NCBI GenBank assembly: GCA_027069645.1
Contig: JALXEI010000159.1
Location: forward strand, 1-60,075
Direction: 5' to 3'
Origin: Hyphomicrobiales bacterium
GTDB taxonomy: Bacteria; Pseudomonadota; Alphaproteobacteria; Rhizobiales; JAKIUO01
DNA length: 60,075 nt
Numbering within the stretch: position 1 is the first letter of the stretch; every line of letters begins with the position of its first letter. The notes beneath the pieces are model-generated. The model was not told the origin of the DNA and made no database searches. It worked only from the letters and a program-made list of their open reading frames with translations. Positions 47,362-59,891 of this stretch are shown one piece after another. Made by a program: the position numbers and the translations under genes.

Positions 47362-48366
47362 CTAACCGGTTGCCTCACCGGATTTTTTCATATCCAGCAG
47401 ATGCTTTTCCCAGTTATAGGCATGTCGGGTAATAACGGCGAGATCCTCAAATCCAGGTTGCCAGTCAAGCCGCTCATGAATGAGATCAACGCTCGCAATA
47501 AGTGCCGCCGGATCACCGGCTCGTCGCTCCGACATCCTGACATCGAAATCAACACCGGAGGTTTTTTTGACGGCATCTATGACCTCAAGCACAGAATAAC
47601 CACGACCATAACCACAATTCAGGATCTGATTATCACCACCGTTGCGCAAATGCTGCAAGGCGGCAGAATGCGCGCTGACCAGGTCGCTGACATGGATATA
47701 ATCCCGAACGCCGGTTCCATCATCTGTATCGAAATCACTCCCGAAAACTTCCATATGAGAGCGCATCCCGAGAGCGGCCTGACAGGCAACCTTGATCAGA
47801 TGGGTGGCATTGGGCGTTGACTGGCCGGTCCGCCCTTCCGGATCCCCCCCCGCGACATTAAAGTAACGCAGGGCAACAAAATTGAAATCATGGGCAAAAG
47901 CAGTATCCTGAAGCATAATCTCGGTCATCAGTTTTGAAGAACCGTAGGGTGAAATCGGCTTGAGAGGCGTATCTTCGGATACTTTCTCCGTTTCAGGCAT
48001 GCCATAAACGGCCGCTGTCGAGGAAAAAATAAAATGTTTGACACCGGTTTTAACAGCAGCCTCGATCAGGGCGCGAGAATTGACCGTATTGTTGTAATAA
48101 TAGCCGAGCGGATCAACAACGGATTCAGGCACAACAATCGAACCGGCAAAATGAATGATCGCATTGACATTGTGATCCCTGATGCTTTTGCTGACAAGTT
48201 CGATATCACCGGCATCACCTTCGACAAACGCGGCCTCGTCGGGAACGGCCCAGCGAAAACCGGTTGAAAGATTGTCAACGACGACAACCTTCTCCCCCGC
48301 TTCCAGCAATTCAAGAACCATATGGCTGCCAATATAACCGGCACCACCTGTCACCAGCACACTCAT
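47362..48366 (-). CDS. galE: UDP-hexose (UDP-glucose / UDP-GlcNAc) 4-epimerase, GalE family
   Basis: From the ATG at 48366: MSVLVTGGAGYIGSHMVLELL, catalytic YGSSKLMTE (YxxxK), 334 aa. The 410-aa ORF extension was rejected. Confidence 0.88.
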   Translation of the reverse strand: MSVLVTGGAGYIGSHMVLELLEAGEKVVVVDNLSTGFRWAVPDEAAFVEGDAGDIELVSKSIRDHNVNAIIHFAGSIVVPESVVDPLGYYYNNTVNSRALIEAAVKTGVKHFIFSSTAAVYGMPETEKVSEDTPLKPISPYGSSKLMTEIMLQDTAFAHDFNFVALRYFNVAGGDPEGRTGQSTPNATHLIKVACQAALGMRSHMEVFGSDFDTDDGTGVRDYIHVSDLVSAHSAALQHLRNGGDNQILNCGYGRGYSVLEVIDAVKKTSGVDFDVRMSERRAGDPAALIASVDLIHERLDWQPGFEDLAVITRHAYNWEKHLLDMKKSGEATG

Positions 48367-48845
48367 ATAAAAACTTCCTGTATGTCCTTGACCATTCGAT
48401 TTTCGGTCAGTGTGCACCCTGTTTAAATACAGGATCGTCAATTCAACGCACGAACAGCCTAAAGGATCAGCGACCGGTTCTGTCAGCCCTGCACAACATT
48501 CATCAGCACACATACTTATATCCAGACACACTGAATAATCAGGCTGTCCTCTGATCTTTGCTGTATAGGTGCAGGAATATGTTTCGTCAAGCATTCCAAT
48601 ATCAGGAACAATGTGACATTGTGAACCGGTCCCGCATATGCGAGCATCGGGAGTTGCGACTTTTTAGAGTCCGATTCAAAACTCATTATAATCAAGCAAT
48701 GAGTTTTAAAACGGACTCAAACGGGGAACTGTTTCAGTTGGCTGATCCCCCGGCGCTAACACCAGGAGCCACGTTAACCGTGGAGAGGGAGCGGGTGAAC
48801 CTGCCGGAAGGGAATATCGCTACGCCAGACGATCAGGACTGTAAA

Positions 48846-49772
48846 ATGCGCAAACTTCAATTTGCAAGGGTCTGCTTTAAACCGGAACTGGCAGCTCTGC
48901 TCTTTCTTTTTTGCTCGCTGCTGGAGGTGCAACCCGTTATTGGCGAGCCTTTTCCGGTGCCCCGGCTGAAAAATATCAGACACTGGGGGTATCAGCTTCA
49001 GGATGTCCACCTGCCAGACATCGCACGAAGTTTTTACGATCTTGTTGTCATTGACTATTCCGCAGACGGCTCGGACGAAAAGGCATTCAGTGCCACTGAC
49101 ATTGCCGGAATAAAAAACAGGCCGGATGGAAAGCGCAGGATTATTCTGGCCTATCTGAGTATTGGTGAGGCCGAGGACTACCGTTTTTACTGGCGTGCCG
49201 GATGGCATAACAAACGACCGCCCTGGATGATGGGGGAAAATCCGCAATGGCCCGGAAATTACCCCGTTAAATACTGGGACAGGCGCTGGCAGAAAATCAT
49301 TTTCAACTATCTTGATCGGATTATAGCCGTCGGTTTTGACGGGGTTTATCTTGATCGGATTGACAGTTATCAATCTTTCCGGACGAACCCGCGCGCCGAA
49401 GAACAGATGATCTCGCTGGTCTCAGGAATCGCAAAGTATGCCAACCGGAAAAAGCGCCATTTTTATATTGTCCCTCAAAATGCCGAAAGCCTGCTGCGGC
49501 ATTCACACTATCGAAAACAATTGAGTGCCGTTGCCAAGGAGGATTTTTTGTTCGGCCTGAAGGGAGACGGCAAACCGAATGGCAAGGATGAACAGTTCTG
49601 GTCCGGTAAATATCTGTCGCTCGCGCAACAATCCGGATTGCCGGTTCTGGTGATTGAATATCTGCAAAACAGGAAAGATATCTTGCGAACCGAAAAACAG
49701 TTGAGGGCGAGACATTTTATTCCGACTTTTTCGAACCGCGCTCTCAATCGCCCCTCACTGCCAATTCGCTAG
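48846..49772 (+). CDS. Secreted TM1410/GH114-like TIM-barrel glycoside hydrolase (PelA-hydrolase-domain-like)
   Basis: From the ATG at 48846 with an AGGA SD: signal-like ELAALLFLFCSLL. Motifs WGYQLQ..., VVIDYS, ILAYLSIGEAEDYRFYW and FDGVYLDRIDSY are typical of the endo-alpha-1,4-polygalactosaminidase / TM1410 family. Confidence 0.7.
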   Translation: MRKLQFARVCFKPELAALLFLFCSLLEVQPVIGEPFPVPRLKNIRHWGYQLQDVHLPDIARSFYDLVVIDYSADGSDEKAFSATDIAGIKNRPDGKRRIILAYLSIGEAEDYRFYWRAGWHNKRPPWMMGENPQWPGNYPVKYWDRRWQKIIFNYLDRIIAVGFDGVYLDRIDSYQSFRTNPRAEEQMISLVSGIAKYANRKKRHFYIVPQNAESLLRHSHYRKQLSAVAKEDFLFGLKGDGKPNGKDEQFWSGKYLSLAQQSGLPVLVIEYLQNRKDILRTEKQLRARHFIPTFSNRALNRPSLPIR

Positions 49773-58260: not shown

Positions 58261-58553
58261 GGCCGTAAACCCATAAACAGGATCGGGAATGGTGTCAAAA
58301 GCGCAAAAATACGAGGTTAAAATGATCACCGCGCGTACTTTTGTACGAGCAAGATCGTTTTGGCCGGGGATTGCAACGCTTCCGGCATCCTGCTGACAGG
58401 GCATATTTGCTCCCCCGCTGTGTTGCATGCTATTGAAAACCGGAAGGTTTCTTGCGAACTTGCGCCTGGCGGGAAAACAAACCTGCTCCTGCTATTTCGA
58501 TCCTGTTTATGAGTTTACGGCCTAAATGACGGTTTTCGTTCCGGGGGTTAACT

Positions 58554-59891
58554 TTGACTAAAAACGCCGGTTTTGCAGCAATCACACGCCTGCTGCCTGT
58601 CCTCTCTATCCTGTTAATATTGTGCTCCGGCACCCCTTCAGGGGCGCGGTCCGGGGAGACATTGCCAAAAGACAAAACTGTGTTGTCACAAAAACCGGTG
58701 CCGCTAATGCCCGGAGACAGGATTAAACTGTCCTTTCTTGAAAAAGTCGGACTTTCATCCATCCCCAAAGATCACGATCCTGGTAACACCATGCTGTTGC
58801 ACTCTTTTTATGAACGCGCAGATCTTTCCGGCGAATACGAGATTTTCAGTGACGAGACGATATCCCATCCCGTATTCGGCCAGTTGTCTACCGCAGGAAA
58901 AACGTTAAAAGCTTTCGAACAACAACTCCTCACAATCTCCAGAAAAAGGATTGGTCAACAGATATATCTCCGTGTTTTCTTCGTCTCCCGGCCTCCTGTA
59001 TATATCCGCGGGCTGGTAGGGCGGCCAGGTGCCTATCGGTATGAAAAAGGAATGACCCTTTCCCAGTTGCTTTCTCTGGCATCGGGAATTTACCGCGGTG
59101 ACAGCAGGCGAACCCCTGCAAATATTCTTGCCAGTGAAGGCCCCCGCCTAGAAAGGTCAAAGCAAAAACTGGCGCAAATGCTGGTGCTACGCAGGCGTCT
59201 TCTTGCCGAAATCGCCGGAAAATCATCATTTGTCCCGGGAAAAAGGCCTGGCGCTCTGGTTGGTAAAAAACATGCACGGGAAATGGTAAAAAATGAAAAC
59301 CGCTATCTGCAACAGGTTTCGCAGTTGAGAAAAAAACGCCAAAAAAACCTGATTGAAGCAGACAGGGTTGCCAATGAACAAATAGAGGGAATGCTTGAAC
59401 AGGAAAAGATCGCCCGATTGCAAAAAGAAACCATCAGGAAAACCATTCGCAAATACAAGGATCGATACCGACGATCGCAGACCAGTGCTTCGATCAGATC
59501 TCAGGAGCTGATTACAAGACTGGATTTGCGGCAACTGGATTTGCAGATCAAGGAAAGTAAAATCCGGAGCGATCTTCTTGCAGCGCAGCAGGGAAAATTA
59601 CAAATTCAACGGGATTTTTCTGCAGCTGTTCTGGCTGAAACAGTCGAACTGAAGAGGCGACTTGAACGTGTAGAGAATGATATCGTCAATCTGGAAAGCG
59701 ATATTTCCATTTCAAAGAACCTGCTGGCACAGATCGGAAAGAAATCCATTAATAATGCCCCGACCGGGATACCGAAATCAGCGCTTGTCTACAAGCTGAA
59801 AAGACGCATCAAAGGCAAAATACAAAACCTTGAAGTCCATGAAGACAGTTTTGTCTGGCCTGGCGACGTGGTGCAAATCGGCCTGAGATAA
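58554..59891 (+). CDS. Wza/OPX-like polysaccharide export protein with a long coiled-coil insertion
   Basis: TTG start and signal peptide (ITRLLPVLSILLILCSG). Poly_export-type motif PGDRIKLSF...LSGEYEIFSDETISHPVFGQLSTAGKTLKAFEQQL. SLBB-like VYIRGLVGRPGAYRYEKGMTLSQLLSLASGI. A heptad-rich K/R/E/Q segment of roughly 230 aa follows, and the SLBB-type ending VWPGDVVQI comes only at the C-terminus. Confidence 0.6.
   Translation: MTKNAGFAAITRLLPVLSILLILCSGTPSGARSGETLPKDKTVLSQKPVPLMPGDRIKLSFLEKVGLSSIPKDHDPGNTMLLHSFYERADLSGEYEIFSDETISHPVFGQLSTAGKTLKAFEQQLLTISRKRIGQQIYLRVFFVSRPPVYIRGLVGRPGAYRYEKGMTLSQLLSLASGIYRGDSRRTPANILASEGPRLERSKQKLAQMLVLRRRLLAEIAGKSSFVPGKRPGALVGKKHAREMVKNENRYLQQVSQLRKKRQKNLIEADRVANEQIEGMLEQEKIARLQKETIRKTIRKYKDRYRRSQTSASIRSQELITRLDLRQLDLQIKESKIRSDLLAAQQGKLQIQRDFSAAVLAETVELKRRLERVENDIVNLESDISISKNLLAQIGKKSINNAPTGIPKSALVYKLKRRIKGKIQNLEVHEDSFVWPGDVVQIGLR

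Follow-up and report, generated by a model that had tools for sequence, protein, structure and literature searches.

Positions 47362 to 59891 of contig JALXEI010000159.1 from a Hyphomicrobiales bacterium (assembly GCA_027069645.1) hold a nine-gene locus of the pel type. The contig was analysed as one stretch of 60,075 nt, which is called the window throughout. The reading adopted here is that the pel locus belongs to an alphaproteobacterial Pel variant, is complete and probably functions; a probability of roughly 0.7 is given to this reading, which is drawn from sequence comparison. Family membership of the encoded parts, preserved catalytic residues, intact and coupled open reading frames (ORFs) and synteny that recurs in other genomes speak for a working locus. 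Pel is a main polymer of the biofilm matrix and has been studied almost wholly in Pseudomonas aeruginosa and Bacillus cereus. The original prediction, made from the letters of the window, held that most of the canonical pel set was missing or replaced. This was right for the PelB barrel, PelC and the GAF and GGDEF domains; PelA, PelD and PelE are present in altered form. The proteins concerned are named PelA' (807 amino acids, aa), PelD' (204 aa) and PelE' (289 aa).

All nine ORFs proposed for the locus were confirmed at their positions. They form two divergent units, as had been described, and both gene content and gene order bear out a layout unlike pelABCDEFG or pelDEA(DA)FG. The genes of PelA', a TPR protein and an OPX-like protein run in the direction opposite to the unit that leads from PelD' to PelG. 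The PelD' and PelE' genes overlap by 4 nt (ATGA) and the PelE' and PelF genes by 29 nt, both as claimed earlier. The spacing between the PelF and PelG genes is 6 nt, the PelA' and TPR genes overlap by 4 nt, and no spare coding room is left within the locus.

Strong PelF and PelG signatures had been claimed from the motifs DICLIVEGCYPYVPGGVSSW and MAGIGFEL. Both motifs are found in the locus proteins, and the profile scores lie far over their cut-offs. PelF (51192-52703, minus strand), a GT4 glycosyltransferase and the presumed polymerase, matches NCBIfam NF038011 with 452 bits (cut-off 100) and also DUF3492 (PF11997, 267 bits) and GT1. It is 38% identical to the PelF of Caballeronia (E=5e-100), whose canonical pelABCDEFG operon served as the reference, and 56–60% identical to PelF proteins of Hyphomicrobiales. 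PelG (49755-51185, minus strand), a multi-pass inner-membrane protein and putative exporter, matches PF16933 over its full length with 351 bits (cut-off 29) and is 27% identical to Caballeronia PelG (E=4e-44). Sequence searches of the PDB with PelG, PelD' and PelE' gave nothing useful and offered no PelDEFG structure. GalE, a UDP-hexose 4-epimerase (47362-48366, minus strand), scores 433 bits with TIGR01179 (cut-off 262). Related loci, about 90 in all, were fetched and are labelled L; among them, L002 to L004 are metagenome contigs, L084 is Azospirillum rugosum, L091 is plasmid p1 of Cereibacter azotoformans and L093 comes from Stellaceae. An epimerase gene also accompanies the pel loci L003, L009, L084, L091 and L092 as well as the pel locus of B. 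cereus (PMC7112168).

PelA', PelD' and PelE' have no Pfam or NCBIfam match, so that their identities were sought by other comparisons. What had been called a deacetylase-like protein is indeed a deacetylase and, more exactly, a PelA homologue that lacks the GH166 domain (54452-56875, plus strand). In the PDB, PelA' matches the PelA of P. thermotolerans (PtPelA, 9cgy; E=2e-49) over the regions that follow the hydrolase domain, and nothing else. Residues 298-912 of Caballeronia PelA align to PelA' (28% identity, E=3e-64), whereas its hydrolase domain (residues 80-280) matches the separate hydrolase gene of the locus instead, weakly (E=5e-9). PelA' is composed of a signal peptide, a mixed alpha/beta domain, a CE21 de-N-acetylase domain and a beta-rich C-terminal part, without a GH166 domain. 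The catalytic and metal residues of CE21, seven in number, are all kept: H309, D311, D313, H385, H389, E545 and H583 align with H515, D517, D519, H589, H593, E712 and H750 of PtPelA, which serve as catalytic base, metal triad, activating residues and catalytic acid (PMC12022489; the chain numbering of 9cgy is offset by 36 from the numbering used there). PelA' is thus predicted to be a shortened Gram-negative PelA of the CE21 type. The PelA_DA of B. cereus belongs to a separate family, CE26/CBM114 (PMC13254593). Unlike pelA_DA, which lies between pelE and pelF, the PelA' gene is divergent from pelD'E'FG. A Gram-positive origin of the locus was considered and rejected, the deacetylase being CE21-like and not CE26 (PMC13254593).

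The stand-alone hydrolase (48846-49772, plus strand) had been described as GH114/TM1410-like. Its scores place it in the TM1410 family (PF03537, the Pfam GH114 family, 88 bits; TIGR01370, MJ1477/TM1410, 236 bits; both over the cut-offs), but its CAZy class is now GH191 and not GH114 (PMC12054363). Among PDB entries it matches TM1410 (E=3e-45), the PelA hydrolase domain 5tcb (E=7e-5) and Ega3 (E=0.1). A conserved D and E correspond in the alignment to Asp156 and Glu225, the putative catalytic residues of TmGH191, and the N-terminus is hydrophobic, as in a secreted protein. One GH191 member cleaves Pel with a preference for stretches rich in galactosamine (GalN), and the family includes alpha-1,4-galactosaminidase activity on Pel (PMC12054363). 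It is proposed that this separate enzyme stands in for the lost hydrolase domain of PelA. Taken with the other enzyme families of the locus, it would be consistent with a partly de-N-acetylated alpha-1,4-linked polymer of N-acetylgalactosamine (GalNAc) as the product.

The proteins placed earlier at the PelD position and described as PelE-like kept their positions, and chains of profile comparisons to the Caballeronia proteins identify them more exactly as truncated homologues of PelD and PelE. PelD' (53541-54155, minus strand) aligns to the N-terminal approximately 200 residues of proteins of 340-375 aa that occupy the same position in related loci, and the motif PHP(F/Y)WIPV..LS.QYGT is common to both. 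The profile of PelD' orthologues matches pel-locus proteins of 443-483 aa with transmembrane segments, a GAF domain and in part a weak GGDEF domain (hhalign probability 100%, E=1.7e-43), and these match the RefSeq "PelD GGDEF domain-containing protein" of Caballeronia (probability 94%, E=1.5e-7). No GAF or GGDEF match was found in any protein of the locus with Pfam or NCBIfam, as the original prediction had it, and a tblastn search found no remnant of the GAF-like domain of the relatives anywhere in the window. The chain of PelD' terminates behind a coiled coil, at a stop codon that overlaps the start of PelE'. It is therefore described as the predicted membrane module of PelD plus a coiled coil only. 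An exhaustive search gave 721 relatives, and in all of the best 150 it is the N-terminal part that matches. Relatives of 245 aa or fewer make up 14 of the 149 best (about 9%), so that the short form is, as judged by these alignments, a recurrent minority. The PelD of the Cereibacter plasmid, with 189 aa, is likewise membrane-only (profile probability 97.7%). A short PelD of Aureimonas (L077) was dropped as a wrong-frame artefact.

PelE' (52675-53544, minus strand) could be followed in a similar manner. The profile of its orthologues matches the TPR protein at the PelE position of L009 (hhalign probability 99%, E=2e-18), which in turn matches Caballeronia PelE (BLASTP E=9e-9). PelE' contains three hydrophobic segments and, on the cytoplasmic side, a helical region that is conserved; it lacks the C-terminal TPR part of the L009 and Caballeronia proteins. 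The position between PelD and PelF is kept in approximately 60 loci. PelE' is accordingly listed as a predicted shortened PelE. Since PelD' lacks both GAF and GGDEF, the classical gate at PelD that is operated by cyclic di-GMP (c-di-GMP) cannot work here, and control would have to be transcriptional or be exerted elsewhere. There is a parallel in Streptococcus thermophilus JIM8232, which has a truncated PelD and yet forms pel-dependent biofilm (PMC7112168).

Truncation of two proteins raises the question of decay, in which PelD' and PelE' would be remnants and no polymer would be made. PelD' is approximately 150 residues and PelE' approximately 50 residues shorter than the counterparts in L003 and L004, an IS256 fragment lies beside the OPX gene, and in the closest relative, L002, the short PelD (L002:1687-2134) is split over two frames. 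The loss in the window is clean, however, with the PelD' stop overlapping the PelE' start and no domain remnant, and the nine ORFs are without exception intact and closely coupled. The same short PelD is also kept in L002, whose PelF is 70% identical, and in Cereibacter. The L002 frameshift may be an assembly error, given the 5x coverage of that contig. Decay is for these reasons considered very improbable.

The locus is not a singular arrangement. An earlier genome scan with PelF alone gave no confirmed relative. A scan of one genome per species, queried with the PelA'-family alignment, showed that at least 201 species-level genomes encode the same form of PelA, and among the best 80 of the 201 loci every one named below phylum is alphaproteobacterial. 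The full set of PelA', TPR protein, PelD, PelE, PelF and PelG is present in 55 of these best 80, and in complete loci one to three TM1410-type hydrolase genes usually come after it. The nearest PelF relatives, in L002-L004, share 63-70% identity (70% for L002, 67% for L003) and have the same layout. Cohaesibacter has the same gene set in an identical divergent layout; in Methylobacterium durans the set is entirely co-directional, with the OPX gene after pelG. The same genes are also found in L003, L004, L006-L008, Aureimonas, a Bradyrhizobium, L091 and L092, the plasmid locus of Cereibacter azotoformans combining the set with a membrane-only PelD and an OPX protein. In RefSeq, the only names given in these loci are PelF, PelG, GalE, hydrolases and "polysaccharide biosynthesis/export family protein"; the rest are "hypothetical".

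Pel diversity surveys cover rearrangements, pelB fission and the Gram-positive type, and they contain no OPX and no alphaproteobacterial type (PMC7112194, PMC7112168). Searches of the open-access literature for Pel with OPX, Wza or alphaproteobacterial groups gave nothing relevant, and no open-access publication that characterises this type as an exopolysaccharide system was found; an existing description may lie outside that literature. The architecture thus represents a common and apparently uncharacterised alphaproteobacterial Pel type, as judged by homology and synteny, and not a one-off.

Some related loci have features of their own. In Hyphomicrobiaceae and Hyphomicrobium (L013-L068), mostly two to three tandem TM1410-type hydrolase genes are convergent with pelG. 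On Cereibacter plasmid p1, a TM1410-type hydrolase with C-terminal RTX repeats (HemolysinCabind, 117 bits) is encoded near pel (L091:302-1759), which suggests a Pel-type hydrolase that would be secreted by a type I system. The loci of Azospirillum lack OPX and instead encode a barrel protein together with a long TPR protein that resembles PelB; their PelD has 477 aa and includes GAF. In Azospirillum rugosum (L084:12197-16871), an apparent split of PelB yields a TPR protein of 1027 aa and one of 536 aa with TPR plus barrel, the latter with a weak match to PF24604 (24 bits, cut-off 31).

The exit route is the part in which the locus departs from the known machinery. Neither a TPR-porin fusion of PelB size nor a PelC-like lipoprotein had been seen earlier, and tblastn with Caballeronia PelB, its barrel alone or Caballeronia PelC found none at E<=1 in the 60-kb window. 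The membrane-anchored TPR protein (56872-58260, plus strand; 462 aa) matches TPR_19 and TPR_14 and has an N-terminal hydrophobic helix at residues 1-27. PF24604, the PelB barrel family, which scores 302 bits on Caballeronia PelB, has no match in it, and a profile search of the PDB gave generic TPR and PPR proteins only, PelB not being among the matches. Its gene lies directly after the PelA' gene in all of approximately 60 loci, and its profile recognises the long proteins that resemble PelB in L009, L084 and L088. It is probably the positional counterpart of the TPR part of PelB, without the beta-barrel.

The OPX-like protein (58554-59891, plus strand; 445 aa) was assessed by its Poly_export and SLBB scores and by an AlphaFold2 model (predicted local distance difference test, pLDDT, 82). 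Orthologues in other pel loci are over the cut-off with 39-51 bits, and profile comparison with the OPX protein of the same build on the Cereibacter plasmid gives a probability of 99.7%. In the model, helices 188-220, 238-307 and 312-398 are flanked by beta domains, and the chain closes with beta strands 411-444 and the sequence end WPGDVVQIGLR, so that a C-terminal membrane-spanning helix of the Wza_C type appears to be absent. With Foldseek, the N-terminal part matches Wza and the class-3 OPX protein WzaB of Myxococcus (E ~1e-6), and the hairpin matches LipC (E=4e-5) and HlyD, adaptors of type I secretion, with a target TM-score of 0.68-0.70. Precomputed Pfam HH_AprE hits are present in OPX homologues. 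No HlyD, lipoyl or barrel Pfam matches were found in the OPX protein, and the likeness to membrane fusion proteins is in the hairpin only. The model therefore points to a hybrid of a Wza-type base and an adaptor-like helical hairpin, with no membrane-spanning element. Such a protein would need a partner channel encoded elsewhere.

From these parts a mechanism can be proposed. GalE would supply UDP-GalNAc, which PelF would polymerise on an inner-membrane platform of PelG, PelE' and PelD', an assembly modelled on the PelDEFG complex of P. aeruginosa. There would be no c-di-GMP gate at this platform. In the periplasm, PelA' would partly de-N-acetylate the chain and would probably be held by the membrane-anchored TPR protein in place of the TPR scaffold of PelB. 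The separate secreted GH191 enzyme would take the trimming role of the lost GH166 domain. The OPX protein, with its Wza-like base and a hairpin of approximately 100 Å, would form a periplasmic conduit replacing the PelB barrel and the PelC ring and would pass the polymer on to a channel of the outer membrane whose gene lies elsewhere.

For this channel, a barrel partner in the style of class-3 OPX systems is the conservative guess by analogy (bioRxiv 10.1101/2022.02.11.480155). A TolC-type partner is a serious alternative, given the adaptor-like form of the hairpin and the dependence of BgsBA on TolC in Sinorhizobium meliloti (PMC13438883). In that case, the hairpin would dock tip-to-tip on an outer-membrane factor of the TolC family to form a tripartite-like tube, and no beta-barrel porin would be involved. 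The superposition on the LipC and HlyD adaptors and the AprE-type hairpin of the homologues agree with such docking. Moreover, no barrel is linked in any of approximately 60 loci, and a synthase-dependent glucan of S. meliloti needs TolC with the HlyD-like BgsB (PMC13438883). In a metagenome-assembled genome of Stellaceae (L093:10001-15691), an OPX-hairpin homologue adjoins a GT2, a GH5, a type I-like ABC transporter and a HlyD-family adaptor; by this neighbourhood, the OPX-hairpin family is predicted to serve also outside pel loci, beside machinery of the TolC-dependent type. Nevertheless, long coiled coils match structurally with ease, the hairpin tip of the window protein is divergent, with a 5-residue insertion relative to its homologues, and no TolC gene lies in the window. 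An OPX-TolC pairing is without experimental precedent, and beta-barrels are the partners of those class-3 OPX proteins that have been studied (bioRxiv 10.1101/2022.02.11.480155). TolC docking is therefore regarded as rather unlikely. The same low odds are given to a broader scheme, in which an OPX/type I-like hairpin hybrid would replace the porin and lipoprotein ring and plug into a shared TolC-type channel, while the membrane module of PelD would suffice. If this scheme were true, a previously unrecognised exit route for polysaccharides would exist via the OPX-hairpin hybrid and a TolC-type channel, c-di-GMP sensing would be an add-on, and the membrane module would be the essential core of PelD.

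Several observations weigh against a complete and functional Pel variant with OPX as its conduit. The direct profile-to-single-sequence tests were not significant, with probabilities of 4.6% for the PelD' family against Caballeronia PelD and 1.1% for the PelE' family against Caballeronia PelE, so that the homology of both proteins rests on the intermediate families. The OPX protein of the window scores 23.5 bits for Poly_export (PF02563) and 26.7 bits for SLBB, a little short of the cut-offs (28 and 27), and the 60-kb window contains no outer-membrane partner. An OPX gene lies within 10 kb in no more than 4 of the 55 complete loci of the genome scan, and most Hyphomicrobiaceae loci have no linked outer-membrane component within that distance; OPX may be an accessory and not the general exit route. 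Four of the proteins are, finally, strongly basic, which is odd for the machinery of a cationic polymer.

With regard to OPX, the near-cut-off scores, the homologues, the profile comparison and the model, taken together, favour membership in the OPX family. The gene is linked to pel in at least four gene orders (after TPR, after PelG, before PelD, and after an epimerase and TPR pair), which argues for a functional linkage. Where the loci checked encode a barrel like that of PelB or a long PelB-like protein (Azospirillum, L009), OPX is absent from the vicinity; OPX and the PelB barrel do not co-occur in the loci examined, and many loci have neither. Furthermore, all unassigned ORFs of the approximately 90 fetched loci were clustered in a search for barrel, PelC or OPX proteins near the Hyphomicrobiaceae loci, and only housekeeping neighbours recur.

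The basic proteins bear on another possibility, namely that a Pel-like machinery makes a different polymer, with another sugar or with little or no deacetylation and hence not cationic. The hydrolase, PelA', the TPR protein and the OPX protein have isoelectric points (pI) of 9.8-10.3 and net charges of +16 to +35. The same four are strongly basic in L004 and L002 as well, whereas acidic or neutral orthologues are found in L003, Cohaesibacter, Methylobacterium, Cereibacter and Caballeronia. The substrate specificity of PelF cannot be read from its sequence, and Bundalovic-Torma et al. caution that divergent pel loci may yield other polymers (PMC7112194). The shift could reflect a different polymer charge or a periplasm-wide adaptation. 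The latter is suggested by the cytoplasmic PelF, which is acidic in all loci compared; the other window proteins have a median pI of 7.4. A different polymer is also opposed by the preservation of all CE21 catalytic residues in the deacetylase, by the alpha-1,4-galactosaminidase activity on Pel in the hydrolase family (PMC12054363) and by the linked GalE. It is considered quite improbable, and a little more so than docking on TolC, and the partly de-N-acetylated GalNAc polymer is preferred as the product.

The locus was also described as more AT-rich than its surroundings, which was taken as a sign of horizontal acquisition. The GC content of the locus is 48.9%, a modest 3.4 points under the 52.3% of the remaining sequence, and no other 12.5-kb stretch of the window has so low a value. 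The GC content at third codon positions (GC3) is 0.505, compared with 0.568 elsewhere (Mann-Whitney p=5e-4). A second, shorter assembly of the same lineage (L001) is near-identical and has fragments of IS256-family transposases directly after the OPX gene (L001:57-470, L001:1195-1473), beyond window position 59891. These fragments probably explain the contig end at 60075. A called ORF of 137 aa beside the L001 transposase is antisense to it and looks spurious.

A recently acquired genomic island would account for the base composition and the transposase fragments, and related loci lie on plasmids of Cereibacter, Azospirillum and Paracoccus. However, the GC difference is small, and the pel block of L003 lies beside the same DUF2269 and GalE genes (74% and 70% identity, respectively; window 43756-47159 and L003:39-1711), so that the locus appears to have been kept in place since the two lineages split. 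The shared flank indicates a long residence at this site and argues against a recent transfer. The DUF2269 and GalE genes are at the OPX end of the pel block in L003 and at the hydrolase/PelG end in the window, which implies that the block was inverted between the two lineages. The claim of horizontal acquisition, to which the lower GC content and the adjoining IS256 fragment lend weak support, is thus weakened by the L003 flank, and recent acquisition as an island is unlikely.

Some details of gene starts and signals should be added. The likely start of GalE is 48366, where the protein begins with MSVLVTGG (the listed ORF extends to 48594), and that of the hydrolase is 48846, shorter than the listed ORF. 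PelD' probably starts at 54155 with a GTG preceded by AGGAG (the listed ORF extends to 54323). For PelA', the listed ORF runs from 54452, and the probable start is near 54536; the divergent gap between the pelD'E'FG and pelA'-TPR(-OPX) units (54156-54535) is 296-380 nt, according to the PelA' start chosen. This region would presumably hold the promoters of both units. A consensus promoter scan showed nothing specific in it: the scan gave 25 promoter-like sites (14.9±4.0 in shuffles), none tellingly placed, and 23 terminator-like sites (16.6±4.2 in shuffles).

Elsewhere in the window, a MarR/ArsR-type regulator (46641-47159, minus strand) and an SDR-DoxX fusion (44894-46177, minus strand) lie between the flanking DUF2269 and GalE genes. 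A cobalamin riboswitch (42579-42816, minus strand, 123 bits) is found upstream of a TonB-dependent receptor (40468-42537, minus strand). An RND efflux pair, composed of a HlyD-family adaptor and an AcrB-family pump (20164-24603), has no adjoining gene for an outer-membrane factor. A listed ORF of 388 aa (36572-37738, minus strand) has an extreme composition, with a pI of 11.7 and a net charge of +71, and could be either a basic protein of an unusual kind or an ORF in the wrong frame. No rRNA was found in the 60-kb window.

The significance of the locus lies in a third, apparently undescribed pel layout that is common in Alphaproteobacteria and is carried by cultivable genera, among them Cereibacter, Methylobacterium, Pseudovibrio, Aureimonas, Azospirillum and Bradyrhizobium. 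It offers natural experiments on the role of a PelD that is unable to sense c-di-GMP, on whether the hydrolase and deacetylase of PelA must be fused, and on the way out of the cell for a synthase-made polymer when PelB and PelC are missing. The OPX-hairpin hybrid would join Wza-type export with type I secretion or TolC-type export, which are normally separate. Should the product prove Pel-like, enzymes and lectins that target Pel would be applicable to many environmental and plant-associated Alphaproteobacteria.

Compared with the pelABCDEFG operon of P. aeruginosa, the locus has in common PelF, PelG, a PelE homologue, the membrane module of PelD, the alpha/beta, CE21 and beta-rich parts of PelA and a periplasmic TPR scaffold. 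It differs in that PelA is split, with GH166 replaced by a separate GH191 enzyme; PelD has no GAF/GGDEF receptor for c-di-GMP and PelE no C-terminal TPR part; the PelB barrel and PelC are missing and OPX is added; and the genes form two divergent units with flanking GalE and hydrolase genes. With the pelDEA(DA)FG operon of B. cereus and its flanking pelA_H and galE (PMC7112168), it shares a deacetylase-only PelA, a separate hydrolase, a linked GalE and core D-E-F-G genes that stay together. The B. cereus PelA_DA, however, founds CE26/CBM114 (PMC13254593), whereas the deacetylase of the locus is of the Gram-negative CE21 type. The gene order of B. cereus is also different, its PelD binds c-di-GMP, and the TPR and OPX proteins are additions of the locus for the second membrane. 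Streptococcal PelD variants lack GGDEF, as does PelD', and the form in S. thermophilus JIM8232 consists of transmembrane segments and GAF (PMC7112168); in the locus GAF is gone too, and the organism is Gram-negative.

On the export side, the class-3 OPX proteins of Myxococcus (WzaX/S/B with WzpX/S/B; bioRxiv 10.1101/2022.02.11.480155; PDB 9n9a) have a Poly_export and SLBB base without the Wza_C helix, as has the OPX protein of the locus, and for both the lack of the C-terminal membrane helix of Wza means that a separate outer-membrane channel is needed. The Myxococcus proteins serve Wzx/Wzy pathways, are approximately 200-250 aa long and have no long hairpin; unlike in those systems, no barrel gene is linked in the locus. 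The BgsBA-TolC system of S. meliloti (PMC13438883) is alike as an alphaproteobacterial machine of the synthase type with a HlyD-type hairpin protein and an unlinked outer-membrane channel, but BgsB is a true membrane fusion protein and not an OPX chimera, and the synthase, a GT2, carries a c-di-GMP site of its own. The likeness to the fungal galactosaminogalactan (GAG) cluster (Uge3, Gtb3, Agd3, Sph3, Ega3), which had been pointed out earlier, is real as a shared logic and is not new, since the parallel between Pel and GAG is established (PMC7229062, PMC9135694). The synthase and secretion route of the fungal cluster are unrelated, but both clusters combine an epimerase, a synthase, a metal-dependent de-N-acetylase and endo-alpha-1,4-galactosaminidases that act on a GalNAc/GalN polymer.

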